64,000 nt of DNA from Candidatus Nanosyncoccus sp. (GCA_045536725.1 JAZSOC010000034.1:17228-81227); one strand, 5' to 3'. Counted from the first letter of the stretch, positions 46,682-62,288 are shown. Program-made: numbers and translations. The notes: generated from the sequence alone by a model not told the origin.

Positions 46682-47311
46682 CTACTTATTAGTCCATAGC
46701 TCCCAGTCAAGTGGCCAAGCGTTAAACGAATCGCAACCTCTCAATCCTGTTGATTGCTGCAACATAATCGGCGCTGGCCCACCATTCGGGCAAGACTCCT
46801 CATGCGCATAATGTCCCAGCCAATGCCCCACTTCATGATTCACTACCATATGCTGATAATCTCGCTGAGACATTCCCGCCGCATTACTCGCCGTAGTCCC
46901 ATTCCGCCATCTCAAATCATTAATAATCACCTGGTTATGCCAAGTTGTACACGACAAATCACCAGAACATCCTGCTATCGTATCTAATGTCGCCGCATCA
47001 GATAAAGCAATAATTAAATCATAATCATCACCCGTTGTCTCCGTAAAAGTCATTCCTCCCCTCGTCCAGCCTCGGCCATCATTTAAAGTTTCCGCCACTT
47101 TCTTTCTAAAATCACCAACATCCGCCAACACTGTCCCCCACACTTCAATCTTATATTTAAAATCTCTCTGCCCCGTCCCCGTCACCATTGTAGAATGGCT
47201 CGACGCTAGTGGGCTAGTCGCCACTACTGGCTCCGGCCACTTCTCATAATCAGTCGGCACTTTCAGCACCGCCTGCTCCAGCGTCAGTCCCACCAACACC
47301 TCTGTAATCAT
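46682..47311 (-). CDS. Zn-metalloprotease-like protein (HExxH; DUF3152-like)
   Basis: It carries VVNHEVGHWLGHYAHEE. The start MITEV (47311) lies 7 nt after TGGTATAAT. The ORF track extends to 47362. Confidence 0.5.
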   Translation of the reverse strand: MITEVLVGLTLEQAVLKVPTDYEKWPEPVVATSPLASSHSTMVTGTGQRDFKYKIEVWGTVLADVGDFRKKVAETLNDGRGWTRGGMTFTETTGDDYDLIIALSDAATLDTIAGCSGDLSCTTWHNQVIINDLRWRNGTTASNAAGMSQRDYQHMVVNHEVGHWLGHYAHEESCPNGGPAPIMLQQSTGLRGCDSFNAWPLDWELWTNK

Positions 47312-47410
47312 TACCTTAATTATACCACACCCCCAAATTTTTGAATAAACAAAATCCGCCAAGGTGGTATTTTCTCTTGCCGAAGCGCATTTAGGAGTTC
47401 ATTTATAGAT

Positions 47411-47497
47411 AGAATCGTTCAAATGGGTGTTTTCTTCTACCCTTGCGCGATCTATTATCGAGCAACGGGTAGAAAAAACGCCCAGTTGGGCGATTCT
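47411..47497. repeat. Long imperfect inverted repeat (hairpin family member H3)
   Basis: Arms agaatcgttcaaatgggtgttttcttctaccc (47411-47442) and gggtagaaaaaacgcccagttgggcgattct (47467-47497). The loop gcgcgatctattatcgagca resembles the H1 loop at 10099-10121. Confidence 0.6.
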
Positions 47498-47510
47498 AGC
47501 AGCTATAAAT

Positions 47511-47540
47511 TGGCGGGGGTGCCTGGACGAAGTTCGAAAC
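47511..47540 (-). repeat. tRNA 3'-end-like fragment C
   Basis: tggcgggggtgcctggacgaagttcgaaac aligns with fragments at 61418, 62240 and 60435, and more loosely with the 3' ends of the tRNA-Ser genes. Confidence 0.6.
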
Positions 47541-47622
47541 AAACTGATATGATATAATATCCGTATGGCAGTATTGTCATAGAACTTTAAGGCATTGTTG
47601 CGATTTTTGCAGGAGGTGAATT

Positions 47623-48096
47623 ATGATTACTACTAGTTGTTATTCTTCTTGTAATCTAAACGACGGTAATTTCCACTATTGTTCTATCTCTGGCGATCGT
47701 GGCAAAAGAGTGGGGTATGTCGGGAAATGTTATCGTGCTCTCGCACCAAAACTATCATTTTGGGAAATCTGGCACTCTAATATTGGAAAAATCCCCGTAT
47801 TAGACAATGACCGATTTTATGTTAGAGAATATTACAAACAAGTTCTGTCAAAACTAGATCCAAAAGAAGTTTATAAGGAATTAGATGGCCAAACCACAAT
47901 ACTCCTGTGCTATGAGCCTCATAATGAATTTTGTCATCGCCATATAGTTTCTGCATGGATGGAGCTAGCTACCGGTAAAATAGTCCCTGAAATCATGCAG
48001 CAAGAAAACAGTAACCTTATAAATGTTAGCAAACCTATCTGGGTAAAAGAGTATCTGGAAGATATTATCAAAAGTTGCAAAATGCCTAAACGGTAA
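47623..48096 (+). CDS. DUF488-like protein (tentative)
   Basis: 157 aa and AT-rich. LLCYEPHNEFCHRHIVSAWME resembles the DUF488 C-terminal CHR motif. SD aggagg lies upstream. Confidence 0.4.
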   Translation: MITTSCYSSCNLNDGNFHYCSISGDRGKRVGYVGKCYRALAPKLSFWEIWHSNIGKIPVLDNDRFYVREYYKQVLSKLDPKEVYKELDGQTTILLCYEPHNEFCHRHIVSAWMELATGKIVPEIMQQENSNLINVSKPIWVKEYLEDIIKSCKMPKR

Positions 48097-48367
48097 AGCT
48101 GCTTCTGTCTAGAAGCAGTTTTTCAATGGTGGGAATACCTAGATGAAATTCAAACTTCAGTAATAAGCCATTAGCATAGAGGAATGTTTTACATGGATAT
48201 TTTAGTTCAGAATACACCAAATCAAGCATCATTGACTTTGACGTGCCATGTATGAAGGGGTCTATCCCAGTGGCATTGAAAATTACAGCCCGTCCCCAAT
48301 CATCATAATGCTCTTCTACGCCAATTATCCCGAATATATCTTGGTGATGAATTAGAAAATACCCCAT
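48086..48367 (-). CDS. Hypothetical protein
   Basis: 93-aa ORF. Its start overlaps the end of the 35-aa ORF 48352..48459, and its 3' end contains the terminator hairpin of the convergent gene. Confidence 0.3.
   Translation of the reverse strand: MGYFLIHHQDIFGIIGVEEHYDDWGRAVIFNATGIDPFIHGTSKSMMLDLVYSELKYPCKTFLYANGLLLKFEFHLGIPTIEKLLLDRSSFTV
48099..48123 (+). terminator. Rho-independent terminator after 47623..48096
   Basis: Stem ctgcttct, loop gtct, stem agaagcag, followed by ttttt. Confidence 0.7.
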
Positions 48368-48459
48368 TTCTTCATGCTCAAAAGCAAACTATTTTTATCA
48401 AGTTCATCAAATTTCGGTAACTTTTTTTGATGCTGCAATGCATAAATTTTTTGGCTCAT
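48352..48459 (-). CDS. Small ORF (35 aa) with a strong SD
   Basis: aaggaggg lies 8 nt before the ATG at 48459. It translates as MSQKIYALQHQKKLPKFDELDKNSLLLSMKKWGIF. It may be the frameshifted N-terminus of 48086..48367. Confidence 0.3.
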   Translation of the reverse strand: MSQKIYALQHQKKLPKFDELDKNSLLLSMKKWGIF

Positions 48460-48538
48460 AAACTAACCCTCCTTATAAAAGAACTTCTCACCTCTTATTA
48501 TTATATTTCACAAAAAACAGCAAACCCATGGTTGCTTT

Positions 48539-48675
48539 TGGCGGAAGCGAGAGGATTAAGCGCGCGGCAGCGCGCTTTCCGTTCCTCGTGGCTCAAAAAA
48601 TCATAAGCAAGCTTCTGATTTTTACTCGCTCACTCGTCCGGTCGAACCTACGGTTCTCATCCTCTCACTCCCAAT
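48539..48675 (-). pseudogene. Partial tRNA-Ser(GGA) copy with an 85-nt insertion at the T-loop position
   Basis: 48539-48557 is 19/19 identical to the tRNA 3' end at 48790-48808. An 85-nt insert follows (48558-48642, two hairpins), then cgaacctacgg resumes. There is no anticodon arm or 5' half. Confidence 0.6.
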
Positions 48676-48679
48676 CATA

Positions 48680-48789
48680 TGAATTCTTTCTTGAAAGCCG
48701 GTAGATTGGTATTTTCTCCGTGCGAGACGCATCTTCTGGATGGTCGAGCACGAAAAAATGCCGAGATACCGGCTTTCAACAAGAATTCA
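48680..48789. repeat. 23-24 bp inverted repeat abutting the tRNA-Ser(GGA) 3' end
   Basis: Arms tgaattctttcttgaaagccggta (48680-48703) and taccggctttcaacaagaattca (48767-48789). The right arm ends exactly at the base before the encoded CCA end. Confidence 0.6.
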
Positions 48790-48879
48790 TGGCGGAAGCG
48801 AGAGGATTCGAACCTCCGATACGGTTTCCCGCATACACGCGTTCCAGGCGTGCTCCTTCAACCACTCGGACACGCTTCC
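48790..48879 (-). tRNA. tRNA-Ser (GGA anticodon)
   Basis: The reverse complement reads ggaagcgtgtccgagtggttgaaggagc, then an anticodon loop ctGGAac, a long variable arm atgcgggaaaccgtat, T-arm ggaggttcgaatcctct, and an encoded CCA. TGATATAAT lies 10 nt upstream of the 5' end. Confidence 0.9.
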
Positions 48880-49032
48880 GTCTTCCCCAATTATATCACA
48901 CTCCCTGTTTTACGCAAAATCCGGCCTCCATAGCCGGCTCCATTCCCCTTATGTTTATATCTTCATTATAGCACAGCCCTCCCCAAATGTCACGTCTTGT
49001 TTTTTCCCTGTTATCACCCTATACTAAAACCA

Positions 49033-49905
49033 ATGTCTGGAGATAATATTGATACCATTATTAAGCTTACTAACGTAAGCAAGAGCTACGGTTACGGCGC
49101 AGCTTCCTCCTTCGCACTCCAGGATTTCTCACTAGAAGTTAAACGCGGCGAATTTATTATGATTATGGGACCATCTGGCTGCGGTAAAACCACTTTATTA
49201 AACATCCTCGGCCTCCTCGACAAACCCACTCATGGTACCTATCTACTCCACGATAAGCCCATTGAAAAAATCTCCCCTCGCCGCAAAGCTCGTATTCGCT
49301 CAGACAAAATCGGCATGATTTTCCAAAGTTTTAACTTAATCCCCACTCTTCAAGTCATTGAGAATGTCGCTCTCCCCCTTGTTTATTCCGGCTACGGCAA
49401 GACTAATCGCCTCAAAAAAGCTTCCGCCACTCTAGAGCGCTTCCACCTTAAAGAGCGTGAATACTTCTTCCCAGAGCAACTTTCTGGTGGCCAGCAGCAG
49501 CGCGTCGCCATCGCTCGCTCCCTCGTCGCCAACCCAGAAATCATCCTTGCCGATGAACCCACCGGCAATCTTGACAGTCGTTCCTCCCATATCGTCATGG
49601 AAGAGCTCCGTGCTATCCACGCCGCTGGCAACACCATCATCATGGTTACCCACAACCCTAATCTCACCACTTATGCCACTCGCGTCATTCACATGCTCGA
49701 CGGCCACATCGATACCGACATTAAAACCGTCGATGATGCTGATCTCCCTCAGCCAATCGCCGTTCACATCGTCAAGAAAACTCCTGTCGTTAGCACCGAA
49801 AAGAAAGAAAAAAGGGATAAAAAAGACACCCCTAAGAAAAAATCAGCCAAGAAAAAGAACACCAAATCCCAATCTAAGAAATCCAAAAAGAAAGGAGCGA
49901 AATAA
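49033..49905 (+). CDS. ABC transporter ATP-binding protein (MacB/LolD-type) with a Lys-rich tail
   Basis: Walker A GPSGCGKTT, signature LSGGQQQRVAIARS, Walker B ILADEPT. The C-terminal 50 aa are K-rich. The start is probably MSGDNID (49033). Confidence 0.9.
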   Translation: MSGDNIDTIIKLTNVSKSYGYGAASSFALQDFSLEVKRGEFIMIMGPSGCGKTTLLNILGLLDKPTHGTYLLHDKPIEKISPRRKARIRSDKIGMIFQSFNLIPTLQVIENVALPLVYSGYGKTNRLKKASATLERFHLKEREYFFPEQLSGGQQQRVAIARSLVANPEIILADEPTGNLDSRSSHIVMEELRAIHAAGNTIIMVTHNPNLTTYATRVIHMLDGHIDTDIKTVDDADLPQPIAVHIVKKTPVVSTEKKEKRDKKDTPKKKSAKKKNTKSQSKKSKKKGAK

Positions 49906-51125
49906 TGCCATTACTTCTTCGCACTCATTATCGTCTAGCTGTTGAGTCGCTTAAACACAATCGCACACGCTCCCTGCTCACCTGTCTCGGTATTGCTATT
50001 GGTGTCGCCAGCGTCATTCTAATCCTTTCTCTCATGGGCAGTGTTAACCGTCTCATCTCTAATGAAATAGAATCCCTCGGCAGCGACCTCATTCTTGTCC
50101 GCCCTACCGTCCATAGAAGTGATGTCGATAATATTTTCAGTGAACTCACCTCTGCTAATCAATACCTCGGCAGCAATCTTACTTTAGATGATGTTAATAC
50201 CATTAAAAAACTAGACAACGTCACCGCTGTCGCCCCCCTGGCCGCCTCTGTCAATACTCTCAAGGGTGAACACACCGTAGATTCCGCTACTGTCGTCGCC
50301 ACCAACGAAGACATCCAGCCCATCTTAAATCTCACCCTTGATAACGGCTCCTTCATTTCCAGCTCCTTCACCCAAAAAACCGCCGTCATCGGCCATAATC
50401 TCGCCCTAGATCTTTTCAGCACTGAGACTGCCGTCGGTCAAACCTTCTCTATGCTCGGCGAAAAATACCTCGTCATTGGCGTCCTCAATAAGGTGGACGC
50501 TCCTATTAATATTAGCAATATCGATTTCGACCATTCCGCCTTTATCCATACTAAATTCGCCAAAGATTCAGGCCTCCAAGTCCAGCAAATTAGCGTCAAA
50601 GTTAAAAACACCAGTTCCCTAGAATCCACCGCCACTGCCATCACTTCTTCCCTGGAAAAGAGTAAATCGGGTGATCAAAACTTCTCCGTCAATTACGGTA
50701 GTCACATCACTCATCCTGCCGGCTCCCTCATTGATATTATCTCTAAAATGCTTACTCTCGTCGCCAGTATTTCCCTGCTCGTTGGCGGCATCGGCATCAT
50801 GAATATCATGCTTGTTTCCGTCGCTGAGCGCACTCATGAAATCGGCATCAGAAAAGCCGTTGGCGCCGCTAATCTCAATATTTTCCTCCAGTTCCTCTTT
50901 GAGAGTTTAGTTCTTTCCTTTATTGGTGGCGTCCTCGGGCTTGGTCTTGGCTATGCTTTCGCCTTCCTCATCTCCCTCATCACACCTTTCACACCTTTCT
51001 TCAGCTGGGATATTCTCCTTTCCGTCCTCTATATCTCCGTCTCTGTCGGCACCATCTTTGGCCTCTATCCCGCCCTTAAAGCTTCCCATAAAAATCCGAT
51101 TGATTCCCTGCGCAGCTATTGCTAA
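49905..51125 (+). CDS. ABC transporter permease (MacB/FtsX family)
   Basis: 406 aa with an N-terminal TM helix, a periplasmic domain, and a C-terminal FtsX 3-TM module. Its start overlaps the ATPase stop. Confidence 0.85.
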   Translation: MPLLLRTHYRLAVESLKHNRTRSLLTCLGIAIGVASVILILSLMGSVNRLISNEIESLGSDLILVRPTVHRSDVDNIFSELTSANQYLGSNLTLDDVNTIKKLDNVTAVAPLAASVNTLKGEHTVDSATVVATNEDIQPILNLTLDNGSFISSSFTQKTAVIGHNLALDLFSTETAVGQTFSMLGEKYLVIGVLNKVDAPINISNIDFDHSAFIHTKFAKDSGLQVQQISVKVKNTSSLESTATAITSSLEKSKSGDQNFSVNYGSHITHPAGSLIDIISKMLTLVASISLLVGGIGIMNIMLVSVAERTHEIGIRKAVGAANLNIFLQFLFESLVLSFIGGVLGLGLGYAFAFLISLITPFTPFFSWDILLSVLYISVSVGTIFGLYPALKASHKNPIDSLRSYC

Positions 51126-51153
51126 TGTCTATAATTGTGTTATAATAAACATA

Positions 51154-51723
51154 ATGAAAGAACAGGCCAAACAGATTTTTTCCAGATTTGTCTCTGGGGA
51201 GCATTTCTCCGAGGGCCTTTTTAATCATTCTCACAATGTTGCCACCGTCGCCGAAGCTATCGCGGAACATGTTAAAGATTTAGACCCAGACAAGGCCTAC
51301 GCTTATGGCCTCCTTCACGATATCGGCCGTTATCCTGGCGACGTCGGCCTCAATCATATCATTATTGGCTACAAACTTCTCCAGAAAGAGGGTCTAGAAG
51401 ATGCTGCTCGCATTGCTCTCACCCACACCTTCTATGAAGGCCAGGATTGGGAAGTTTTCTGGGATGAACGTGGCCTCACCGATGATGAAAAACAATTCGT
51501 CATGGACTATTTAAGCAATATTGAGTTTGATGATTACGATCGTCTCATTCAGCTCGCCGATAATATGGCCACCGTCCATGAAATCACCACAGTCGAAAAG
51601 CGCTTCGCCGACGTCCTCACTCGTCACACTTTTGATCATCCCGAAGACAATCTTCAAGCTCTCAAAGCCCTCAAGTCCTACTTCGACGCTAAAACTGGCC
51701 TTGATATCTATACTCTCTTCTAA
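51154..51723 (+). CDS. HD-domain phosphohydrolase
   Basis: It carries H...LLHDIGR motifs. The promoter is leaderless: TGTTATAAT at 51138-51146, 7 nt, then ATG. The ORF track extends upstream to 50923 into the permease gene. Confidence 0.6.
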   Translation: MKEQAKQIFSRFVSGEHFSEGLFNHSHNVATVAEAIAEHVKDLDPDKAYAYGLLHDIGRYPGDVGLNHIIIGYKLLQKEGLEDAARIALTHTFYEGQDWEVFWDERGLTDDEKQFVMDYLSNIEFDDYDRLIQLADNMATVHEITTVEKRFADVLTRHTFDHPEDNLQALKALKSYFDAKTGLDIYTLF

Positions 51724-51769
51724 TTTACTAACAAAAATGGGAGCCCTTAGGCTCCCTTATCGTCACCTC

Positions 51770-51931
51770 CTATTTTATTTCCGTTACATGAAACTCTTCA
51801 TACTCTACATCCGATTCATACAGTTTACTACCCGCTCTTTCACTAGCCTCTGCTTCAGTTAATGCGTAAATTTCAAAACTACTCACTACTATATCATCTA
51901 CGCCTATCACTTCAACTAAAAATTTTCTCAT
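51770..51931 (-). CDS. Small acidic hypothetical protein (53 aa)
   Basis: It is below the ORF-track cutoff. SD aaagggga precedes the ATG at 51931, and the hairpin gggagcc/ggctccc plus a T-run (51739-51756) lies downstream on the minus strand. Confidence 0.3.
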   Translation of the reverse strand: MRKFLVEVIGVDDIVVSSFEIYALTEAEASERAGSKLYESDVEYEEFHVTEIK

Positions 51932-52075
51932 TTTACTCTCCCCTTTCATAAAAAATAGAAGATGCTCCTAATGTACTACATCACCTTATATTATACCACA
52001 CCGCTTATGCTATGTCAATATTTTTCACACTTCGCTTATGCTTTCACCCCTGTAAAATTATGATATAATAGCTCT

Positions 52076-53137
52076 ATGTATATTCTTGCTATCGAAAGCT
52101 CCTGCGATGAAACCGCCGCTGCGGTCGTCAAAGATGGTAAAGAAATTTTAAGCAACGTTATTGTTTCCCAGATTGATATTTTTAAAGCTTACGGTGGTGT
52201 CATTCCAGAAGTTGCCGCCCGTTCCCACCTTGAAGCCATCATCCCCGTTGTTAATAAAGCCTTAAAAGATGCAGATAAAACTTGGGACGATATAACAGCT
52301 ATTGCCGTCACTCACACCCCTGGCCTACTCGGCTCACTCTTGATTGGCACCCTCACCGCCCGCACCCTCGCTATCTTACACGATAAACCTCTCTATCCCG
52401 TCCATCACCTAAAGAGCCATATCTATGCAGCCTGGTATAATCATCAAATTCAGTTCCCAATCTTGTCGTTAGTAGTCTCCGGCGGCCACACCCAGATTCT
52501 CCGTATGGCCAAGCATAATGACTTTAAAATTATTGGTACCACCCGGGATGATGCCGTCGGCGAATGCTTTGATAAGGTCGCTAAAATCCTCGGTCTTCCC
52601 TACCCTGGCGGCCCCGCCATCGCTGAAGCCGCTAAACATGGCGACCCAAACAAGTATCATTTCCCTCACCCCCATCTCACCAGCCCCGCCCGCGGTCAAA
52701 AACATTATTCAGACCTTGACTTTTCTTTTTCCGGCCTCAAAACCGCAGTACTTCGCAAGGTCCAAGAGGAGCTAAATCTCCCCTTAAATCACCCTTCCCA
52801 CGACCTTAAAAATCACCTCACTAAACAGCAGATTGCCGACTTCGCCGCCAGCTTTCAAAGCACCGCCATTGACATCCTCCTAGAAAACTTAGAGAAAGCC
52901 TATCACAAATACCCTGACACCAAGTCTATCGTCATTGCCGGCGGTGTCTCCGCCAATGAATTATTAAGAGACAAAGCAGTGCAAAAATTCGGCCCCAAAG
53001 TCTTCTTCCCTGATAAACCACTGAGTGGCGACAACGCCGCCATGGTCGGCGCCGCCGCTTACTACGAAATCAAAGATGGCAAAAGCCCTAGCGACCCCTA
53101 CCACCTAGACATTCTCCCTAGAAGCACCATCAACTAA
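52076..53137 (+). CDS. tsaD: tRNA N6-adenosine threonylcarbamoyltransferase TsaD
   Basis: 353 aa with ILAIESSCDETAAAV and the HxxxH metal site (VHHLKSH). The promoter is leaderless: TGATATAAT at 52061-52069, 6 nt, then ATG. Confidence 0.93.
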   Translation: MYILAIESSCDETAAAVVKDGKEILSNVIVSQIDIFKAYGGVIPEVAARSHLEAIIPVVNKALKDADKTWDDITAIAVTHTPGLLGSLLIGTLTARTLAILHDKPLYPVHHLKSHIYAAWYNHQIQFPILSLVVSGGHTQILRMAKHNDFKIIGTTRDDAVGECFDKVAKILGLPYPGGPAIAEAAKHGDPNKYHFPHPHLTSPARGQKHYSDLDFSFSGLKTAVLRKVQEELNLPLNHPSHDLKNHLTKQQIADFAASFQSTAIDILLENLEKAYHKYPDTKSIVIAGGVSANELLRDKAVQKFGPKVFFPDKPLSGDNAAMVGAAAYYEIKDGKSPSDPYHLDILPRSTIN

Positions 53138-53393
53138 ACGCATATTTTTGTATTTTTCAACGCGCTCGTGTATAATAAATATTGACATATCTCATTCATA
53201 TAAAAGCGTGGATCGTTTTTAGAACTTATTTTTATTAAAAACACTTACCAAGAAGTACGGTATCGGCGTCATAAGTATTTTGTCGGTGCTGTCGCAGCTT
53301 GGTAAAAGGTGCACGCATGGATGAGATATGTCAGCTTGTGGCGCCGATACTCTACTTAAGCCATTGGTGCCACCAATATTAATGGAGGTACAA

Positions 53394-54704
53394 ATGCGCG
53401 ACAGCAAAAAATTCAAGCTCAAAAAATCATCTTATTCCCATTTCCTGGTGGGTGTTTTTATTTTCTTCTTCTCATTCTTTTCTTCAGCAATCATTTCTGG
53501 GATGCTCACGCCCGTTGATGATTCCTCCGCCCAGACCGTCTCCGTGGAAAATCGTGCCACCGGCTATTTCATCACTGTCACCGCCCCAGACTCTGCCGGG
53601 CTTAATGTTACCCCTTCTGCAGAAGACACCGTTTCAGTCTCCCCTGCCAGCAATGTTAACGTTTTGACCAATGCTCCTGGCGGCTATAAGCTTTACCTCT
53701 CAGCCACTAATGTCGATCTTTCCGCCACCAATATCACCCCCAAATTCACCCCTACAGAATCTTCTTCCCTTTCTCCCAACTCTTGGGGCTACAGCTTGGA
53801 CCAGTCCACCTGGTCCGGCATTACCACTTCAGAGGTAAACATCTCCAGCCGCGAGCAGTCTAATTATCCTAACGGCACCAATGTCCCAGTTTACTACGGA
53901 GTCAAGGCCAACACCACTATGCCAGCCGCCACCTACTCCACCACTGTCACTTACACCGCTTTCGCCGAAGGAATTTATCAAAAACTCAGCGACGTCGTAG
54001 CAGTCGGCGATTATGTCCACATGGTGCCAAACTACGTCGGCAGTTACACCCCTACCACTAATAGCAGCAGCCCATACTATACCGGCACCTCCACCCCCGG
54101 CTCCGTCACTCCATCTGAATTAGACACCTGGGTAGTAATTAAGAAAAATGCGAATGGTAGCCTAGAAATGGTAAGTAAAAATGTCTCTAGTTCAAATATT
54201 ACATTCTACGGAAGATCTGGGTATGATAATTTTGTAGAATCCCTTGAAAAAATCGCCGAACAATATGAAAATAGCAATTTTACAAGCAGCTCAAGGTATT
54301 TTGGCCATAAGGAGGGTGAAGTTATGTATAATGGAGGAGATAGTTCATCCTGGAGACACGGAGAAGGAAGTACTTATTATGAAACCGATATGAATCTAGT
54401 GAAGAATGCCTTAGGCGTCCGCGGAGAGGCAACATTAATTGCAGGCAATCCCAATAATGTAGTCGAATATTGGCTAGGCTCCTCTAGCTTTACTAATACT
54501 TCTACTCTTTGGTATTGTGAAGCTCGTTACATCACGACATCAGGAACAACTACCTACACAACACTATCCTCTCATGGAGTAGGCGGTACTCAATATGCAT
54601 TACCTAAAGCTATCCGCCCCATCCTCACCACCAAGCCCGACATCCTCGTCGATACCACCGGTGACGGCTCTGCCGCCCACCCCTGGGTCCTCACCACCTA
54701 CTGA
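53394..54704 (+). CDS. Secreted or anchored surface protein (N-domain paralogous to 23670..24305)
   Basis: The start MRDSKKF follows SD ggagg. It has an N-terminal TM/signal sequence, then a beta-rich domain ending AATYSTTVTYTAF, then a C-domain of about 230 aa. Confidence 0.5.
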   Translation: MRDSKKFKLKKSSYSHFLVGVFIFFFSFFSSAIISGMLTPVDDSSAQTVSVENRATGYFITVTAPDSAGLNVTPSAEDTVSVSPASNVNVLTNAPGGYKLYLSATNVDLSATNITPKFTPTESSSLSPNSWGYSLDQSTWSGITTSEVNISSREQSNYPNGTNVPVYYGVKANTTMPAATYSTTVTYTAFAEGIYQKLSDVVAVGDYVHMVPNYVGSYTPTTNSSSPYYTGTSTPGSVTPSELDTWVVIKKNANGSLEMVSKNVSSSNITFYGRSGYDNFVESLEKIAEQYENSNFTSSSRYFGHKEGEVMYNGGDSSSWRHGEGSTYYETDMNLVKNALGVRGEATLIAGNPNNVVEYWLGSSSFTNTSTLWYCEARYITTSGTTTYTTLSSHGVGGTQYALPKAIRPILTTKPDILVDTTGDGSAAHPWVLTTY

Positions 54705-54806
54705 TCTATAGATGCTGTGGAAAACCTGTGGAAATCTCCCAGCCAAAGTGTGGAAAACTCTCCCCTGTTCCACCTCTGCAAACGCAAAGTATGCTATAAT
54801 ATAAAA

Positions 54807-55754: not shown

Positions 55755-55790
55755 CAGTTCCCTGCCCTAGAAAAATAGTCCCAGTCGGGG

Positions 55791-55997
55791 CTATTTTTTC
55801 TCATATTTGGATAAATCAAATAAACTTTGCTTTCCCTCATCGATGATTCCCTGCGCTTTCTTTAAAAGCTTCGTGATTCCCTTTTCTGTTGTCGCCGAGC
55901 CCACGTGTACTGTCTTCACCACTCTTCCCCGCTCCTTATAGCACACCTGTATGCCTGTCGCCCCCGAAGCCGTCTTAAATTTCCGAATATACGCCAT
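55791..55997 (-). mobile_element. N-terminal fragment of a transposase (IS1634/ISLre2-like), truncated
   Basis: The 68-aa ORF MAYIRKFKTASGATGIQVCYKERGRVVKTVHVGSA resembles the conserved N-terminus of this transposase type. No DDE domain follows. Confidence 0.4.
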
Positions 55998-56396
55998 ACC
56001 CTAATTATACACGACTTATTCCACATCCGTAAAATGCTTACATCTATATATTAGCATCCACTTGTCTTAGCAACCCGCTTATGCTACAATAGAATTAATC
56101 AGCTACACAGGTGGGCAACTCCAAGTAGTTGAGGAGGAACGTTAGTCGACGGCCGCACAGGGGATTATCTCTAAGAATCAAGCGTAAGGTAGGCCGCCAT
56201 ATCAGAAAAATTAAGATAACGCAATTAAAATAGTATTTTATTGCAAAAAATCAAATTTTTTCACGTGCCCCAACAGGGAAAGCACGTAATTTTGCTGTGT
56301 AAATTATGTTTTGATTATGCTTGCGAAAGCCATTAGACTCGTGTAAACTAGTAAAGACTACTAATCCACGCACTTTTTTTAAAGGAGGGAATTGTT

Positions 56397-56957
56397 ATGG
56401 CAAAAGTAGTAGTATTTATTGGTTCTATGAGTGACGCAGAGAAGATGAAACCCTGCATTGATACCCTTAAAGAAGCCGGGGTCAACTACGACGTTCATTG
56501 CATCTCTGCACATCGCGCACCCGATGTTCTTCGCGACACTGTGGCTAAGGAGTGCTCTTCGCTTTCCGATCTGGTGCAAAAGACTTCAAGAGATGGAACG
56601 CTGGTCACCGCCACAACCCATGCTGAAAAATGCGGCGTTATTATTGCTGCTGCCGGCATGGCAGCCGCTCTCCCAGGGGTAATCGCCAGCCACACCACTA
56701 TACCAGTGATTGGTGTACCACTCTCTGGCTCAGCTCTCAATGGGCAGGATGCTCTCTATTCCATCGCTCAAATGCCGCCTGGCATCCCTGTTGCTACGGT
56801 AGCAATCAACGGCGCCAAGAACGCCGCCATCCTTGCGATGCAAATCATTAGCACCTCGACACCTGGTATTGCCAAAAAGCTGGATACACAGAGAGCAGAA
56901 CTTAGAAATCAGGCTCTTCACGCCGACAGAGAAGCATCATCTTTCTATGATAACTAG
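56397..56957 (+). CDS. purE: PurE-like (N5-CAIR mutase family) protein
   Basis: It carries VFIGSMSD, SAHRAPD, IIAAAGMAAALPGV, IPVIGVP and MPPGIPVATVAI. It has about 23 extra aa (CSSLSDLVQKTSRDGTLVTATTH) relative to E. coli PurE. SD aaggaggg lies upstream. Confidence 0.75.
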   Translation: MAKVVVFIGSMSDAEKMKPCIDTLKEAGVNYDVHCISAHRAPDVLRDTVAKECSSLSDLVQKTSRDGTLVTATTHAEKCGVIIAAAGMAAALPGVIASHTTIPVIGVPLSGSALNGQDALYSIAQMPPGIPVATVAINGAKNAAILAMQIISTSTPGIAKKLDTQRAELRNQALHADREASSFYDN

Positions 56958-56980
56958 AAAAATAGACCAAACCTCAAAAA

Positions 56981-57007
56981 CTCCGGTAGGGAATTACCGG
57001 AGTTTTT
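56981..57007. terminator. Bidirectional terminator between purE and valS
   Basis: Stem ctccggta, loop gggaat, stem taccggag, flanked by an A-run and a T-run. Confidence 0.75.
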
Positions 57008-57013
57008 CTTGTC

Positions 57014-59659
57014 TTAAATCACCTCTAATTGCTTCTTGAGGTCCGCAATCAGCTTCTCTTTTTCAGCGATAGCATCACGCGTCTCTTTCACTAACCCCGC
57101 TGGCGCCCGCTCCACATAGCTAGGATTCATCATTCGGGCATTTAAGCCATCTAGCTCCCGCCCTACGGAGAGAATCCGCTCCTCTAATCCTTTACGATAC
57201 TTCGCTACCACCTTAGCATCCACATCTAAGTATAAATCATGATTAGCTAACGCTAAGCGCAAACCTCTTGGCTGTCCTTCACACGGATTTACCGCTGAAA
57301 GTCGTCCCAAATACTGCACTAGCAAAGTATTATCGTTCACTAGGGAATCATCGCCATACAGTAATTCTAATTTACCCTTAGTAAGCTTTGAGAGCGCCTG
57401 TGAGGTGGTTCTCACTTCAGACACGACAAGCTGCAATCTATCAAAATTCTCCGCCGAAATCGGGTCGTATGACATCTCAGAAGGCCATTCTCCGCTTGCT
57501 AGCATCCCCTCCGTCCAAGATAAATTCTGCCAAATCGCCTCCGTCACGAACGGTGCAAACGGATGGAGCATTGCAAGGATTGTCTCTAATGTCGCCCTCA
57601 GTAGTGGAATATTCTTATAGATCTTCTGACTCTCTAAGAACCAATCCGCATACTTATCCCAAATCGTTGAATATAGCACTTCCACCGCCTCAGAGAAACG
57701 ATACTCAGCCATATCTTGTTCCACCATCTTCCGGCAACGGTCTAGCTCCCGACAAATCCAGTCCTCACCCATATTCAAGGTTGTATACTCAATCTGACCA
57801 GGATTCATCTTGTCAGAAGCTGTACTTTCTAAATCACCCTCTGGGTTAGTTAGTACCGTATCCACTTCCGCTTCAGAATAGCCTCTCTCAGAAACTTCTT
57901 CATCCACCAACGACTGCACAAAGCGCGAAATATTCCACAGCTTATTGCACAAGTTCCGGCCAGATACCACCGAGTTCTCCGAAAACGCTTGGTTCATTCC
58001 CGCAGAACGGCCACGTAAAATCCCAAGCCTCAGTGCATCTGAACCGTACTTAGACACCATCTCCATTGGATTAATCACGTTCCCCTTGGACTTGCTCATC
58101 TTCTTGCCATGCGCATCTAGCACCAAGCCGTGCAAGTATACCTCACGGAAAGGCACCTCACCAGTGACATATAGCCCCATCATAATCATCCGTGCCACCC
58201 ACGCAAATAAGATATCCGCCCCTGTCTCCATCACATTCAAAGGATAAAACGGGGAACCAACGCCTTCTTCCCAATCTGTGCACACGATTGGCCAATGTGA
58301 AGACGAAAACCACGTATCAAACGTATCTTCATCCCGTACGTATTTCCGTCCGCCTACTTCAATCTCAGACAGCTCCACCCGCGTATCGAATATCCACTCG
58401 CCAGTCTCTTCGCAGTAAAACATTGGAATCGGTATGCCCCACGGTATCTGCCGTGAAATATTCCAATCCTTCAATCCAGAAAGGTAATTAATCAAAATCT
58501 TTTCCTTAGAAGCAGGGAAGAACTTAATTTCACCAGCCTCGAGATGTTCTATTGCTATCTTCGCCAGCTTTTCCGTATCGATAAACCACTGCTCCATGAG
58601 GAGTGGCTCAATCACCGTCCCACATTTATAACAATGCGCTACTGAGTGAACAATCTCTTTTTCACCCCTAAGTAAATCTTGTTCTTTCAAATCATGCAAG
58701 ACTTTCTTTCTACACTCAGCGGTAGAAAGTCCAGCATATTCCGGCCCACATACTGGCAACATTTTTCCATCAAAGCCAATCACTGTCACTCTCGGTAAAT
58801 CATGCCGCTCGCCCACCTCAAAGTCATCATAATCATGCGCTGGCGTAATCTTCACCGCCCCTGTCCCATACTCCATATCTGCATGTTCATCAGCTACAAC
58901 AGGAATCTCACGGTCTGTCAAGGGGAGATGCACCGTCCTACCAATTAAATCCTTGTAGCGCGAATCTTCTGGATTCACCGCCACTGCTGTATCACCAAAT
59001 AATGTCTCTGGCCGCGTTGTGGATACAATTATTTCACCCCCGTCATAAGTATAGGCAATATCCCAAAGGTGGCCCTTTTCATCCACATGTTCCACCTCAA
59101 TATCCGCAAAGGCCGTCTGATGCTTCGTACAATAGTTTACCAGCTTTTCACCCCTATAAACCATCCCATCCTTCCACATCTTTTCAAAGGTAGCATACAC
59201 CCGGCGCACGACATTCTCATCTAGTGTAAAAGTCAGATCTGGCCAAGCACAGGACGCACCCAATGCCCGCACTTGGAGCTCCATATTGCCACGCTGCTCC
59301 TGTACAAAGTCCCACACCCGTGCATATAATTCTTCCCGTGGATAATCAAAGCGCGTCTTCCCCTGAGCCTCCAGCGCCCTCTCATATACCACCCAGGTCT
59401 CAAACCCAGCATGATCCGCCCCTGGCACATACCAAGTATCTCGCCCACGCAAACGGTAATAGCGCGTCAAAGAGTCCTCTACTGCAATCGTCAGCCCATG
59501 CCCAATATGCAAGTTGCCATTCGCATTTGGCGGTGGCATCACAATGCTATACTTCTTCTCCAAAGAAGATGCAGGCTTATCGAAAACCCCCGCCGCCTCC
59601 CAGGCTGCATAAATATCTATTTCAAACTCCCCCGGCTCATACGCACTCGCAAATTTCAT
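57014..59659 (-). CDS. valS: Valyl-tRNA synthetase
   Basis: About 881 aa with PPPNANGNLHIGH, KMSKSKGN, an editing domain, and a C-terminal coiled coil. The start is probably MKFASAY (59659) with a ggag SD. The ORF-track TTG start is at 59671. Confidence 0.95.
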   Translation of the reverse strand: MKFASAYEPGEFEIDIYAAWEAAGVFDKPASSLEKKYSIVMPPPNANGNLHIGHGLTIAVEDSLTRYYRLRGRDTWYVPGADHAGFETWVVYERALEAQGKTRFDYPREELYARVWDFVQEQRGNMELQVRALGASCAWPDLTFTLDENVVRRVYATFEKMWKDGMVYRGEKLVNYCTKHQTAFADIEVEHVDEKGHLWDIAYTYDGGEIIVSTTRPETLFGDTAVAVNPEDSRYKDLIGRTVHLPLTDREIPVVADEHADMEYGTGAVKITPAHDYDDFEVGERHDLPRVTVIGFDGKMLPVCGPEYAGLSTAECRKKVLHDLKEQDLLRGEKEIVHSVAHCYKCGTVIEPLLMEQWFIDTEKLAKIAIEHLEAGEIKFFPASKEKILINYLSGLKDWNISRQIPWGIPIPMFYCEETGEWIFDTRVELSEIEVGGRKYVRDEDTFDTWFSSSHWPIVCTDWEEGVGSPFYPLNVMETGADILFAWVARMIMMGLYVTGEVPFREVYLHGLVLDAHGKKMSKSKGNVINPMEMVSKYGSDALRLGILRGRSAGMNQAFSENSVVSGRNLCNKLWNISRFVQSLVDEEVSERGYSEAEVDTVLTNPEGDLESTASDKMNPGQIEYTTLNMGEDWICRELDRCRKMVEQDMAEYRFSEAVEVLYSTIWDKYADWFLESQKIYKNIPLLRATLETILAMLHPFAPFVTEAIWQNLSWTEGMLASGEWPSEMSYDPISAENFDRLQLVVSEVRTTSQALSKLTKGKLELLYGDDSLVNDNTLLVQYLGRLSAVNPCEGQPRGLRLALANHDLYLDVDAKVVAKYRKGLEERILSVGRELDGLNARMMNPSYVERAPAGLVKETRDAIAEKEKLIADLKKQLEVI

Positions 59660-59724
59660 TAAAAACTCCAAATTAACCCACTAATTACTACAATTTTACC
59701 ATATTTTCCCTAGACTCGCCACCC

Positions 59725-60102
59725 CTATACCAGCGCCAGCTTCTCTCTAATCTCTTCCATCTCTTCAGGAGTTAACTTCACCTCGCGCCCATGCGTCCAG
59801 GTCTCATCATACGGCATCAGATGAATATGCGCATGTGGCACATCCGTCCCAATCACTTTCCAGAGCGTCCTCGTCCCCAGCACCTTCTCCATATTCACCG
59901 ACAACTTCTTCGCCGTCTGTAGTAGCGCTACATAATCTTCCTCTGGCAATTCATAAATTTTATCGCATTCTAGCTTTGGAATCACCAGCGTATGCCCAGC
60001 CGTCTCCGGATGAATATCTAAGAACGCAAAAGTCTTCTCGTCCTCATAAATTTTATAGCAAGGGATCTCACCCTTAATAATCTTCGTAAAAATACTCGCC
60101 AT
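59725..60102 (-). CDS. HIT family (HinT-like) hydrolase
   Basis: IFTKIIKGEIP N-terminus and the histidine triad HAHIHLMP. The ATG at 60102 has an aaggag SD. The ORF-track GTG start is at 60108. Confidence 0.85.
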   Translation of the reverse strand: MASIFTKIIKGEIPCYKIYEDEKTFAFLDIHPETAGHTLVIPKLECDKIYELPEEDYVALLQTAKKLSVNMEKVLGTRTLWKVIGTDVPHAHIHLMPYDETWTHGREVKLTPEEMEEIREKLALV

Positions 60103-60434
60103 ATTCACTCCTTTCCTCCATTATATCATTTACTGAGTAATTCCTATATGAGTAGTCAGAAGACAATGTCCTCACTGCACGCAAGCTATAAGTATAGGTA
60201 TAGTCAGCGCACTCCATATTAATAGACACAGGCTGATCATCTGCACCGTAAGAAATCGCCGAGCCTTCATCAGGTAATAGCTCAAATTAACACCTTCCAA
60301 CCTTTCTTCGTAGATGAAGTAGGCATAGCAGGAGCAATATTTTCCCTCACGTTCGCACGAAAAGCCGCTTCATAGTTATCACCTTCACCCATACCTATAT
60401 TTACTTTTATTTTTCAAGTGAAAGGCCAGTAACT

Positions 60435-60463
60435 TAGCAAAAGCACCTGAACAAAGTTCGAAC
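60435..60463 (-). repeat. Degenerate tRNA 3'-end-like fragment G
   Basis: tagcaaaagcacctgaacaaagttcgaac aligns with fragment C (gtgcctggacgaagttcgaaac), about 17/22 over the T-arm-like part. Confidence 0.4.
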
Positions 60464-60559
60464 TATAGCCTTACAAAACCCCGAACGCCATCTCAGAAAC
60501 GAAGCCCTCATGGAACACGTATACCTTAGTACGAGAGCTTTTCGTGCTACAATGAACTT

Positions 60560-61237
60560 ATGGACAGATTAAAAAAAGCGCGGGAACTGAGTAGTAAGAT
60601 TCTAGAAAGCGATGGCTCTGGCCACGGAATAGATCACACTAACAGGGTCATAAAATTATCTTTAAAATTCGCTAAGGAAGAATCAGCTAATTCCGAAATT
60701 GTATCTTTAATAGCCCTACTGCATGATATGGATGATTATAAATTGTTCGGCACGGAATTTGCTGAAAATCTCACTAACGCCAGAAAAATTCTAGATGATT
60801 GCGGTTTTGATGAAGCGACAAAGGAACAAGTTACCCAAGCTATTAAAGCCATCGGCTATAGTAAAAGACTGCAAGGTATATATCCTGCCACAATTGAAGG
60901 TAAAATTGTGTCAGATGCCGATATGTGCGACGGCATGGGAGCCACTGGCATACTCCGTAGTTTCCAATACCAGATAGCTCATCATGGCGCCTTCTTTGAT
61001 CGAAATACTTATCCAAATTTAGACATGTCAGCGACTGAGTACAAAACTAAAAGTGATGGTACATCCGTCAACCATATCTTTGAAAAAATCTTAAGGCTAA
61101 AAGATTTAATGCTAACAGAGTCTGGTCGAAAAGAGGCTATAAAAAGACACGATTTTGTGGTTGACTTTCTCTATCATTTCTTTGAAGAAGAAAACACCCC
61201 AGAATGGATTGAATACCTAGAAAACTACCTAAAATAA
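60560..61237 (+). CDS. HD-domain phosphohydrolase
   Basis: It carries HGIDHTNRV and LLHDMDD motifs. The promoter is leaderless: TGCTACAAT at 60545-60553, 6 nt, then ATG. Confidence 0.65.
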   Translation: MDRLKKARELSSKILESDGSGHGIDHTNRVIKLSLKFAKEESANSEIVSLIALLHDMDDYKLFGTEFAENLTNARKILDDCGFDEATKEQVTQAIKAIGYSKRLQGIYPATIEGKIVSDADMCDGMGATGILRSFQYQIAHHGAFFDRNTYPNLDMSATEYKTKSDGTSVNHIFEKILRLKDLMLTESGRKEAIKRHDFVVDFLYHFFEEENTPEWIEYLENYLK

Positions 61238-61246
61238 ACCTTATCC

Positions 61247-61272
61247 TGGCGGAAGCGAAGGGATTCGCCTCC
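61247..61272 (-). repeat. tRNA-Ser(GGA) 3'-end-like fragment D
   Basis: Compare tggcggaagcgaagggattcgcctcc with the genuine tggcggaagcgagaggattcgaacctcc. Confidence 0.6.
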
Positions 61273-61377
61273 AAATATATCATTAAATATATCATTTTTC
61301 TAAACTAATACATACTTAATAAACAAAAAGCAAATCGCGACATGTGCGTGACTTGTTTTTCATACTAGTTTCTTTTT

Positions 61378-61415
61378 CGTTTGGACTTTTTCTTTTTAAA
61401 GAAAAAACCCAGTCG
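61378..61415. repeat. Hairpin family member H4 (short form)
   Basis: Arms cgtttggactttttcttt and aaagaaaaaacccagtcg. The right arm is homologous to 47470-47488 (agaaaaaacgcccagttgg). Confidence 0.5.
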
Positions 61416-61417
61416 TT

Positions 61418-61447
61418 TGGCGGAAATGTCTGGACGAATTTTGAACC
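61418..61447 (-). repeat. tRNA 3'-end-like fragment E
   Basis: tggcggaaatgtctggacgaattttgaacc aligns with fragments C and F. Confidence 0.6.
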
Positions 61448-61539
61448 AAATTACAGGATGTTTATATTTACAAAACGTAAGAAATATGCTATTATAAAAA
61501 TAGACCGTACCCTGTCATATTCAAAGGAGGTGAATACCT

Positions 61540-62118
61540 ATGGCAGTAACACAGAAAGTTGACGATCAGTTCTTTTTATTTACACGAATGATACTTGATT
61601 TCTGCGGATATCAATATACAAAAAGTGGCGAAATTACCCCAAGACAGCCCGCTAGCACTAGTTATGGCGACGTACACGGTGGGAACTGGCTTCCGTACAC
61701 ATTTCCAAGAGACAAGAACGCGTGCATTCAAATAATGTACGAAGAGGGAAACAACTATATCATCGCCCATCAAGATAAGCACTCCATATTTTTTGTCCAA
61801 GACGAGCTTATGAAAAGGGCTACCGACGCATGGTATATGGAGTTCCCAATTCTCAATTTTCACTATGAGCCTGGGGCTGAATCGTGGTTCTTCTGGAGAA
61901 GGCACGCCATGATTGGAAAGATTAACAAAAGCAAGCTTCGAGTATACCGCATATCTGATGATATCATAAATTTAGCAACAAATCTTGATGCTGAGCAACG
62001 CTTGTCGGTTGAAAATATGACCAAAGTTCTTGATTCTACAACCGATAAACCTCTTTCCGCACAAGAGTTAGAAGAAGAAATACCGGAAATCGTTAACTTC
62101 TTCCAACCGGGATATTGA
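61540..62118 (+). CDS. Hypothetical protein (AT-rich cassette gene)
   Basis: 192-aa ORF with SD aaggagg upstream and a terminator at 62133-62163. I recognised no motif. Confidence 0.5.
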   Translation: MAVTQKVDDQFFLFTRMILDFCGYQYTKSGEITPRQPASTSYGDVHGGNWLPYTFPRDKNACIQIMYEEGNNYIIAHQDKHSIFFVQDELMKRATDAWYMEFPILNFHYEPGAESWFFWRRHAMIGKINKSKLRVYRISDDIINLATNLDAEQRLSVENMTKVLDSTTDKPLSAQELEEEIPEIVNFFQPGY

Positions 62119-62132
62119 GCTGAGTTACATTA

Positions 62133-62163
62133 AAAAGAGCGGTCAATATGGCTGCTCTTTTTC
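62133..62163 (+). terminator. Rho-independent terminator
   Basis: Stem aaaagagc, a 13-nt loop, stem gctctttt, followed by a T-run. Confidence 0.55.
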
Positions 62164-62239
62164 CACATTCTTCTTAGCAGGGATAAAACTATATTAAAAA
62201 ACTTGTATCTTTTTCCTTGGCGTTTTATCTTTATCAAAA

Positions 62240-62269
62240 TGGCGGAAGCGTCTGGACGGAGTTCGAACC
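62240..62269 (-). repeat. tRNA 3'-end-like fragment F
   Basis: tggcggaagcgtctggacggagttcgaacc. The first 11 nt are identical to the tRNA-Ser(GGA) 3' end, then it follows the C/E-type sequence. Confidence 0.6.
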
Positions 62270-62288
62270 TTAATGCTAAAATAAGATT

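Follow-up and report, generated by a model that had tools for sequence, protein, structure and literature searches.

Fragments resembling tRNA-Ser 3′ ends are probable junctions of horizontally acquired gene cassettes in a Saccharibacteria genome and may reflect large serine recombinase activity

Why should a 64,000-nt stretch of a Saccharibacteria (TM7) genome (JAZSOC010000034.1:17228-81227; hereafter the window, with "+" and "-" denoting its strands) carry, besides intact tRNA-Ser genes, a set of short fragments that begin like tRNA 3′ ends and lie between AT-rich genes? The initial annotation of the window treated six such fragments as one family, and proposed serial integrations that duplicated a tRNA-Ser attachment (att) site, a tRNA-derived repeat, or a cassette-boundary or processing signal. 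We compared the window with related loci, labeled L002 to L067, and found two classes of fragment. The four class-1 fragments are, with high probability, site-specific recombination junctions that bound horizontally acquired cassettes at tRNA-Ser genes. We favor the reading that they are attL-type scars of serial integrations of the large serine recombinase (LSR) type at tRNA-Ser, to which we assign a probability of roughly 0.6. The observations behind these statements are direct: the sites, their arrays, the exact cassette boundaries, the exchange of cassettes between genomes and between tRNA-Ser isoacceptors, the linkage to LSR genes in non-Saccharibacteria relatives, and a 5-bp shift in the position of a shared motif.

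The two tRNA-Ser genes given in the initial annotation, with 3′ ends at 10161 and 48790, were confirmed by ARAGORN and Rfam as tRNA-Ser(TGA) (10161-10247, -) and tRNA-Ser(GGA) (48790-48879, -); both programs also report a tRNA-Met in the window. All six fragments occur at the coordinates first given and far above chance frequency; they lie on the + strand and so read antisense to a tRNA 3′ end. On the same strand, the 3′ end of tRNA-Ser(GGA) reads TGGCGGAAGCG-AGAGGA-TTCGAAC. The class-1 fragments, which begin at 47511, 60435, 61418 and 62240, are copies of the 29-bp site TGGCGGAAGYGTCTGGACGAAGTTCGAAC, with the general form TGGCGG-N5-(T/C)CTGGA-CGAAG-TTCGAAC. They match the tRNA over their first 11 nt and again at TTCGAAC, with five extra bases in between. 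The last 18 nt, those after the 11-nt tRNA match, are a non-tRNA sequence that is conserved across species and recurs in LSR-associated elements of other phyla. The class-2 fragments, at 48539 and 61247, are straight 19- and 21-nt copies of tRNA-Ser 3′ ends that have no 5-nt insertion and break off in the T-loop. The single family of the initial annotation thus splits in two: the four class-1 fragments have the five extra nucleotides, and the other two form a class of their own. The claim that every fragment is followed by a gene divides in the same way. Each class-1 site in the window precedes a + strand gene; 48539 is followed by a tRNA trailer and then the tRNA itself, and 61247 by a spacer of ~150 nt that holds no gene.

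The 18-mer TCTGGACGAAGTTCGAAC, with up to three mismatches allowed, matches the window four times (47522, 60446, 61429 and 62251), always on the + strand, where 0.03 matches are expected. The 11-mer TGGCGGAAGCG has four exact matches (0.07 expected), and a degenerate 28-nt pattern has three (0.02 expected). With four matches against 0.03 expected, chance resemblance is excluded for the fragments. A miniature inverted-repeat transposable element or short interspersed nuclear element (MITE/SINE) derived from a tRNA would account for several copies that resemble a tRNA 3′ end. However, neither terminal inverted repeats nor target-site duplications are present, conservation is limited to a 29-bp block with unrelated flanks, and the copies are confined to one-orientation arrays by tRNA-Ser genes. 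The probability of this proposal, even taken together with coincidental similarity, is close to nil, and we set it aside.

Evidence for the nature of class 1 comes from where homology between genomes begins and ends. The cassette that encodes a C45-family hydrolase in the window is 88% identical to those in L036 (at 1068) and L058 (at 9951), and the identity starts at the first base of class-1 site G (62239/62240); taking L036, L058 and L059 together, homology sets in at 62236-62240. The whole insert of L036 consists of a site, 19 nt, the C45 gene, 17 nt and tRNA-Ser(CGA). L058 has a second site and another gene between C45 and tRNA-Ser(CGA). The same cassette stands at tRNA-Ser(CGA) in L036, L058 and L062, where it lies deeper in the array, and abuts tRNA-Ser(TGA) in L059. 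L025 and L006 share a cassette encoding an MFS transporter at 94.5% identity; the match opens with the first base of one site, closes with the last base of the following site, and goes no further. Window positions 48174-48549 match L022 3021-3557 with 90-93% identity (blastn) at a different tRNA-Ser locus, and this match ends at G11 of TGGCGGAAGCG. In L005 and L006 the left flank of a site is held in common and the right side differs. Across the Saccharibacteria loci, the homology breakpoints fall within site positions 1-11. The cassette idea of the initial annotation therefore withstood comparison with related genomes: cassettes are present or absent and are reshuffled, breakpoints lie exactly at the fragments, and homology starts and stops at class-1 sites as a boundary signal would have it. 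Its proposal of serial integration at a tRNA-Ser att site was essentially right. Integration fits the data; the class-1 sites, which match the tRNA over only 11 nt, are not simple att duplicates.

The site is widespread in related genomes. A scan with the 28-nt pattern of one genome per species (185,579 species) returned 36 loci, 20 of which are Candidatus Saccharibacteria or Nanosyncoccus metagenome-assembled genomes (MAGs), mostly from ruminant gut. In these 20 species genomes the site, TGGCGGAAG(C/T)GTCTGGACGAAGTTCGAAC, is nearly invariant and its flanks are unrelated. An information profile of 33 non-redundant Saccharibacteria copies shows a block sharply bounded at positions 1-29, with flanks at ~0 bits; positions 1-11 carry 0.8-2.1 bits, although they were not used in selecting the 33 copies. 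Of the 20 Saccharibacteria loci, 13 have a tRNA-Ser(CGA or GGA) at a distance of 0.2-4 kb, on the 3′ side of the site and in the same relative orientation. Arrays of same-strand sites are found in L003, L005, L006, L007, L013, L022, L024, L025 and L058. They end at tRNA-Ser and separate low-GC cassettes of 0.4-3.8 kb with 1-3 genes each, encoded on either strand. The cargo of related genomes includes an H+-pyrophosphatase, the MFS transporter, DHH, CYTH, Fic/DOC and Schlafen-AlbA_2 proteins and many unknowns; together with the DUF488, HD and C45 genes and the methyltransferase remnant of the window, it is accessory or defense-like. Sites tend to be perfect near the tRNA and decayed far from it, with exceptions in L006 and L022, where decayed sites lie close.

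A conserved site in front of genes could instead be a functional signal of the host, such as a promoter -35 element, a transcription-factor operator or an RNA-processing signal. All four class-1 sites of the window precede + strand genes, and the site contains TGGACG, which stands 18 nt upstream of a TG-extended -10 element (TATGAT or TAAAAT) in promoters predicted at 47524-47553 and 62253-62282. However, promoter-like matches are not enriched over shuffled sequences (18 vs 11.8 +/- 3.0 and 7 vs 4.7 +/- 2.4), and the adjacent gene is on the opposite strand in L022, L026 and L012. A host signal also fits poorly with copies that decay with distance from the tRNA, and with breaks in homology at the site itself. 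The site folds no better than shuffled sequences on either strand (z ~0), which fits a duplex protein-binding site, and no Rfam family matches it in the window or in the loci from Candidate Phyla Radiation (CPR) bacteria described below. We therefore regard a host signal as very improbable. The processing signal of the initial annotation falls with it, as the site is unstructured and without an Rfam match, cassette genes elsewhere run in either orientation, and older copies decay. As a separate observation, the site may incidentally supply a -35 element, in which case the C45 mRNA would be nearly leaderless. A tmRNA, tRNA-Sec or other non-canonical tRNA was also considered and rejected, as no sequence 5′ of the fragments completes a T-arm and both ARAGORN and Rfam are negative.

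Which enzyme could make such junctions? An indication comes from outside the Saccharibacteria. Twelve of the remaining genome matches and all 18 metagenome matches have TGGCGG followed by TGTTT or variants of it and then TCTGGACGAAGTTCGAAC, ~300 nt of conserved non-coding DNA, and finally defense genes (several restriction-modification (R-M) types, Shedu, AAA_15/21 and GmrSD-HNH). These non-Saccharibacteria matches come from small-genome bacteria of CPR type; their organism labels are heterogeneous, with CPR named outright in some cases (Patescibacteria, Altimarinota and a Moranbacteria homologue). L019, L032, L033, L039, L046, L049, L056 and L057 encode, outward of the motif, a protein of 500-540 aa with Resolvase, Recombinase and Zn_ribbon_recom domains (5945-7486 in L039, 10001-11596 in L056). 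This LSR belongs to a family with >7,800 homologues. The 3′ end of its gene runs into TGGCGG and the antisense strand of tRNA-Ser (...GKSEN-WRRGWDSNP), and an inverted copy of that 3′ end, 99-100% identical, runs into TGGCGG and the motif (...GKSEN-WRCFLDEVRT). A 1.06-Mb contig, L056, has two LSR units at two tRNA-Ser genes, with cargo flanked by inverted repeats of ~290 nt that start at the motif. Identity between these repeats stops at G2 on one side of TGGCGG and at G6 on the other, so exchange takes place within GGCGG. Derivatives that have no LSR gene are found in L017, L041 and L051.

The LSR elements of the CPR bacteria have an architecture that deserves mention in its own right. In L056 (4634-11600) and L039 (117-7534) there are two nested pairs of near-perfect inverted repeats, each ending at the TGGCGG core. 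The inner pair (~130 nt) flanks the LSR gene and consists of its 3′ end and the inverted copy, and the outer pair (~270-290 nt) flanks the cargo and consists of the motif and the non-coding DNA. Such an arrangement hints at segments that can invert, or at a circular form comparable to the 2-micron plasmid, bearing two attP sites in inverted orientation. We considered an assembly artefact as the source of the perfect inverted repeats of L039 and rejected it, as the same architecture recurs in L056, L049, L032, L019, L033 and L057.

The spacing of the motif links the class-1 sites to serine integrases more specifically. Counted from the T of TGGCGG, TTCGAAC occupies positions 18-24 in antisense tRNA-Ser and positions 23-29 in the motif, both in Saccharibacteria and in two other lineages. 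According to Rutherford et al. (2013; PMC3783163), the zinc-ribbon domain of serine integrases binds a motif whose distance from the crossover is 5 bp shorter in attB than in attP, and an attP half-site measures 25 bp. With the crossover placed in TGGCGG, the motif would count as an attP-type half-site of 24-25 bp, and the tRNA as an attB-type half-site. The extra 5 nt of class 1 is the same 5-bp outward shift that sets the attP half-sites of LSRs apart from their attB half-sites.

On this basis, the favored reading of LSR-type integration would work as follows. Rounds of site-specific recombination would have given rise to the two arrays of the window, each downstream of a tRNA-Ser gene. Each class-1 fragment would be a hybrid junction in which the core joins host DNA on its left to the half-site of the element on its right. 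Crossover would take place within positions 1-6, the TGGCGG that is the complement of the discriminator base plus CCA. Positions 5-29 (GGAAGCG-TCTGGA-CGAAG-TTCGAAC) would be the attP-type half-site brought by the element, and the tRNA-Ser 3′ end (GGAAGCG-AGAGGA-TTCGAAC) the matching attB-type half-site, a role that the 3′ end of tRNA-Ser(GGA) would fill in the window; the 5-bp difference between the two would reflect the position of the zinc-ribbon domain. Each integration would bring in new DNA with its own promoter, 1-3 genes and a terminator, and this DNA would come to separate the previous insert from the tRNA. As new inserts would enter next to the tRNA, distant sites would be older and more decayed.

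The sites of the window can be read against this model. Array 1 is anchored by tRNA-Ser(GGA), and its distal boundary is class-1 site A (47511-47540, +; TGGCGGGGGTGCCTGGACGAAGTTCGAAA), the core of which has two mismatches to the consensus. Array 2 begins at the degenerate class-1 site C (60435-60463, +; TTAGCAAAAGCACCTGAACAAAGTTCGAAC), which adjoins the HIT gene of the core genome, and continues with class-1 sites F (61418-61447, +; TGGCGGAAATGTCTGGACGAATTTTGAAC) and G (62240-62269, +; TGGCGGAAGCGTCTGGACGGAGTTCGAAC). Site G is the least decayed copy and bounds the C45 cassette on the left. Decay in this array falls from 60435 (three core mismatches and a degraded TGGCGG) through 61418 (two) to 62240 (one), and site C, the outermost boundary, is the oldest boundary of array 2. 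The order of insertion would have been 60435, then 61418, then 62240, towards a tRNA-Ser(CGA) predicted past 64000. For the sequence beyond that point we used L062 as a proxy. It is the closest relative for the right end of the window, and in it the array ends at tRNA-Ser(CGA), 3.7 kb past C45. For this reason array 2 very probably runs past 64000, and an anchoring tRNA-Ser(CGA) is predicted from the sequence of this relative a few kb further on, on the - strand and with more cassettes ahead of it. The tRNA-Ser(TGA) gene with its two-hairpin trailer (10062-10247, -) has no fragments and can serve as an unoccupied reference site.

The trailers of the tRNA-Ser genes fit this picture. The hairpin family of the initial annotation is real, and can now be identified as the 3′ trailer of tRNA-Ser genes, made up of an intrinsic-terminator hairpin and a second long hairpin. 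The stem of the second hairpin takes in the U-run of the terminator, and it is not a terminator in either direction. Four trailers were aligned (10062-10160 of tRNA-Ser(TGA), 48691-48789 of tRNA-Ser(GGA), 47405-47510, and 3906-4004 of tRNA-Ser(GGA) in L024), and 10 of 20 predicted pairs show compensatory changes. The current tRNA-Ser(GGA) trailer (48691-48789, -; terminator at 48760-48773, then the second hairpin) is 84% identical to that of L024 and was missed in the initial annotation; the proposed family member at 61378-61415 is doubtful. Alignment, covariation and a terminator scan identify 47405-47510 (-) as a displaced trailer of tRNA-Ser type, with a terminator hairpin at 47479-47492 and the long second hairpin, and a partial extra copy lies at ~47340-47404. 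A tRNA-type trailer on the outer side of site A is expected if an insert displaced the original tRNA 3′ end. The tRNA-Ser(GGA)/ABC-transporter locus is syntenic with the window in L024, L018 and L002.

Islands anchored at tRNA genes are common, and the junctions could be classic att scars of tyrosine integrases, left as partial tRNA copies and cargo genes when phages or integrative elements that had inserted into the tRNA-Ser 3′ end and duplicated it later decayed. The class-2 fragments (48539 and 61247 in the window; many in L006, L022, L023, L024, L030 and L067) speak for this, as they are straight copies of 17-22 nt that break in the T-loop, and copies of the tRNA 3′ end that break there are typical of the core repeats of tyrosine integrases. 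A tRNA-Arg gene in L064 has a fragment of the same kind. For class 1 the fit is poor. Class 2 does have the full-core repeat of such islands, which usually spans at least 15 nt and extends to the T-loop or past it, whereas the tRNA match of class 1 covers only 11 nt and is followed by the invariant 18-nt non-tRNA block, which relatives link to a serine and not a tyrosine recombinase. Moreover, no gene of the Phage_integrase type is present among the cassette and flanking open reading frames (ORFs) scanned or in the annotated neighborhoods. We judge tyrosine integration an unlikely source of the class-1 scars.

Class 2 is a separate and commoner phenomenon, in which short stretches of tRNA 3′ end and trailer have been duplicated. 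Fragment B of the window (48539-48557, +) is an exact 19-nt copy of the tRNA-Ser(GGA) 3′ end, and fragment E (61247-61272, +; TGGCGGAAGCGAAGGGATTCG) is a 21-nt copy of a 3′ end of tRNA-Ser(CGA) type, as in the tRNA of L029. Class-2 fragments often lie 85-250 nt from the tRNA, and some form tandem units, with a 64-nt unit in L067 (11115-11306, 12754-12907) and a 70-nt repeat in L064, each holding ~17-22 nt of tRNA 3′ end and trailer. As the tRNA-Arg gene of L064 has an 18-nt 3′-end fragment, class 2 is not specific to tRNA-Ser; repeat and fragment of L064 lie within 11079-11096 and 11600-11710. Either a tyrosine integrase or slippage may have given rise to these duplications. They resemble the E. 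coli tyrT-rtT repeats in that repeats downstream of a tRNA contain its last ~19 nt, and differ from them in that repeat length and sequence are unrelated; the RtT family (RF00391) matches 48539-48681 (-) at 23.2 bits, below the gathering score of 45 (E = 0.11). Several class-2 fragments (window 48539-48600, L002 ~7775-7810, L022 7335-7360) directly precede the complement of the copied tRNA segment and form a hairpin with it, which in L002 reads GCGAGAGGAT-aagg-ATCCTCTCGC.

Several results weigh against LSR-type integration as the full account of the Saccharibacteria arrays. As the initial annotation had noted, the window holds no integrase, and phmmer and tblastn detected no recombinase homologue in it; over 357 kb of Saccharibacteria loci, the window included, the same searches found no LSR or other recombinase and only a trivial tRNA-antisense match. 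The Pfam tables of six Saccharibacteria loci (14-21 kb) list no serine or tyrosine recombinase, and the genes that flank the Saccharibacteria tRNAs are housekeeping genes. A peptide search of ORFs running antisense through the Saccharibacteria tRNA-Ser genes returned only spurious ones of 64-106 aa, unlike those of the CPR relatives. The 33 Saccharibacteria sites have no conserved left half-site in common, and dyad symmetry of the attP-like sites of the CPR bacteria (9-13 of 26 matches) does not exceed that of shuffled sequences (10.7 +/- 1.3). The site is absent from IMG/VR, INPHARED and PLSDB, and no free carrier element was found there. Clean single-gene cassettes such as that of L036 are hard to derive by random deletion from a larger LSR element, and most of the compared sequences are MAG contigs. 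As no recombinase was found in the 357 kb of Saccharibacteria sequence, the enzyme itself is inferred: the junctions would be the work of an LSR that acts in trans or has since disappeared. Two candidates examined in this connection were rejected. A phage or plasmid attP was sought by the 18-mer, and its sole IMG/VR match (L055) is a coding coincidence in a GC-rich phage, with only chance-level matches in INPHARED and PLSDB; Xer/dif-like two-arm symmetry is not above that of shuffled controls.

The missing recombinase, second half-site, symmetry and free elements, together with the clean single-gene cassettes, leave room for an integron-like platform. Here circular cassettes that lack a recombinase would be inserted and excised where the array meets the tRNA, by an enzyme that acts in trans and requires no more than the right-hand half-site (Pr in the cassettes, the tRNA in the chromosome). 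Only one half-site is indeed conserved; the other half would be made up of tRNA trailers, and these vary from species to species. Single-gene cassettes can be free of spare DNA (L036), the same cassettes occur in different orders and at different tRNA-Ser genes, and most arrays have their freshest sites closest to the tRNA. The layout in CPR bacteria (tRNA, LSR, site, variable cargo) also resembles intI, attI and cassettes. On the other hand, no recombinase was identified in the Saccharibacteria loci searched and no circular cassette junction was observed, the cassettes have their own promoters and genes in either orientation, and decayed sites lie near the tRNA in several arrays (L006, L022). 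We consider such a platform rather unlikely. More speculative in scope, and of similarly low probability, is the idea that an LSR runs one tRNA-Ser-anchored, integron-like gene-capture system in Saccharibacteria and, in another layout, in other CPR bacteria. A circular cassette with only the 29-bp half-site would enter the 3′ end of any tRNA-Ser and regenerate the target, so that arrays would grow tRNA-proximally and cassettes could excise and reshuffle; in CPR bacteria, a resident LSR between the tRNA and an intact site would feed a variable defense island.

Comparison with known systems shows that the system works like tRNA-anchored genomic islands and that the geometry of its site matches serine-integrase attachment sites. 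As in LSR attachment sites of the A118/LI, Bxb1 and phiC31 type, the sites are short duplexes without accessory arm sites, crossover falls within a few bases (here GGCGG) in a core common to the partner sites, and the LSR gene lies beside the site in CPR relatives; the outer motif is 5 bp further out in the half-site of the element, with an attP half-site of ~25 bp (PMC3783163). There are also clear differences. No LSR is present in the window or in any Saccharibacteria array examined, only one half-site is conserved and dyad symmetry is undetectable, and recombination is aimed at a tRNA 3′ end, where the crossover falls in the CCA/discriminator region. Up to four or more sites make up an array here, against a single attL and a single attR for an ordinary prophage, and the CPR elements have a second, inverted, intact attP-like site together with perfect inverted repeats of 130-290 nt.

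Prochlorococcus islands, or tycheposons, also carry cargo modules by tRNA genes, split by direct repeats of tRNA 3′ ends, with foreign composition and variable cargo. Their repeats are true tRNA copies made by tyrosine-type recombinases that the elements encode. Tycheposons and the arrays described here are alike in tRNA-side modules with repeats and foreign composition, and differ in that the repeat here is a pseudo-tRNA sequence with five additional bases and no recombinase lies in cis. With integrons the arrays share one orientation, small recombinase-less cassettes, cassette reuse and, in relatives, defense cargo; no IntI or other recombinase was found beside them, and their cassettes have their own promoters and run in either orientation. 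The attC sites of integrons are conserved in structure, variable in sequence and recombine as folded single strands, whereas the site here is conserved in sequence and unfolded. The pdif modules of Acinetobacter plasmids are Xer-dependent and bounded by XerC/XerD dimer sites of ~28 bp with two 11-bp arms in alternating orientation. They too are single-gene modules whose enzyme is encoded elsewhere, but the site here has no two-arm symmetry, is always in direct orientation and is tied to tRNA-Ser. The distinctive features are thus the pseudo-tRNA half-site, the crossover in the CCA/discriminator region, the recombinase-less arrays of 1-3-gene cassettes and, in CPR bacteria, an element with two inverted sites and an LSR gene fused to the tRNA. 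In the searchable literature on Saccharibacteria or CPR bacteria with tRNA-Ser, serine recombinase or islands, we found no description of such a system.

The genomes of Saccharibacteria and other CPR bacteria are tiny and streamlined, and the routes by which accessory and defense genes enter them are poorly understood. A 29-bp landmark would delimit horizontally acquired cassettes in these genomes. It points to an enzyme class and predicts the crossover position and the geometry of the att sites, and in relatives it marks out a widespread LSR family whose natural target is tRNA-Ser and whose cargo is defense islands. If a trans-acting enzyme does move recombinase-less single-gene cassettes, the system would be the serine-recombinase counterpart of the integron. 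Such a family could also supply compact new serine integrases with defined sites of 29-50 bp for genome engineering.

The cassettes of the window stand out in base composition. GC content is 0.29-0.40 at 47.4-48.6 kb and 60.4-64.0 kb and 0.45-0.50 in the rest of the window. In core DNA (44000-60300), GC skew is -0.2 to -0.5 on the + strand whatever the strand of the genes, whereas in the cassette regions (47400-48600 and 60400-64000) it is near 0, a sharp compositional mark of foreign DNA. The asymmetry of the core is unusually strong in its own right.

Array 1 contains a DUF488-like cassette gene (47623-48096, +; GC ~0.36-0.38; Pfam PF22751, E = 1.3e-6), followed by a cassette remnant (48086-48549, -; identified by blastn to L022) that comprises a truncated ORF93 (48086-48367) and its upstream region. 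In array 2, sites C, F and G are followed in turn by the gene of an HD-domain phosphohydrolase (60560-61237, +; Pfam PF01966, NCBIfam PRK10119-like), by ORF192 (61540-62118, +), a 192-aa ORF with no match in any family library, and by the gene of the C45-family acyltransferase/hydrolase (62289-63323, +; Pfam, NCBIfam), whose product is 83-93% identical to Saccharibacteria proteins and has no exact match on record. The array continues at 63324-64000 (GC 0.29-0.33) with an ORF that runs off the window. Within this part, a 104-aa ORF (63409-63723, -; PADLOC MTase_II, E = 2.5e-28) corresponds to the C-terminal ~90 aa of a truncated Dam-type type II DNA methyltransferase. The methyltransferase remnant also follows C45 in L062, where the same 104-aa ORF is found, and in L063. 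It looks like the leftover of an R-M module within the array and recalls the CPR relatives, whose cargo also includes R-M systems.

Two minor observations concern rearrangements. L002 (559-1530) and the window (48790-49905) have the tRNA-Ser gene in opposite orientations with respect to flanking core or cassette genes that they share, and a tRNA-Ser/tRNA-Arg pair is similarly inverted in L064 (11283-11633) compared with L036 and L067. One breakpoint of these inversions is the tRNA-Ser 3′ end, and they could have been made by the same recombination system. An 87-nt direct repeat with 78% identity (34070-34156 and 44458-44544, 10.4 kb apart) is unrelated to the fragments and probably lies within paralogous coding sequence.

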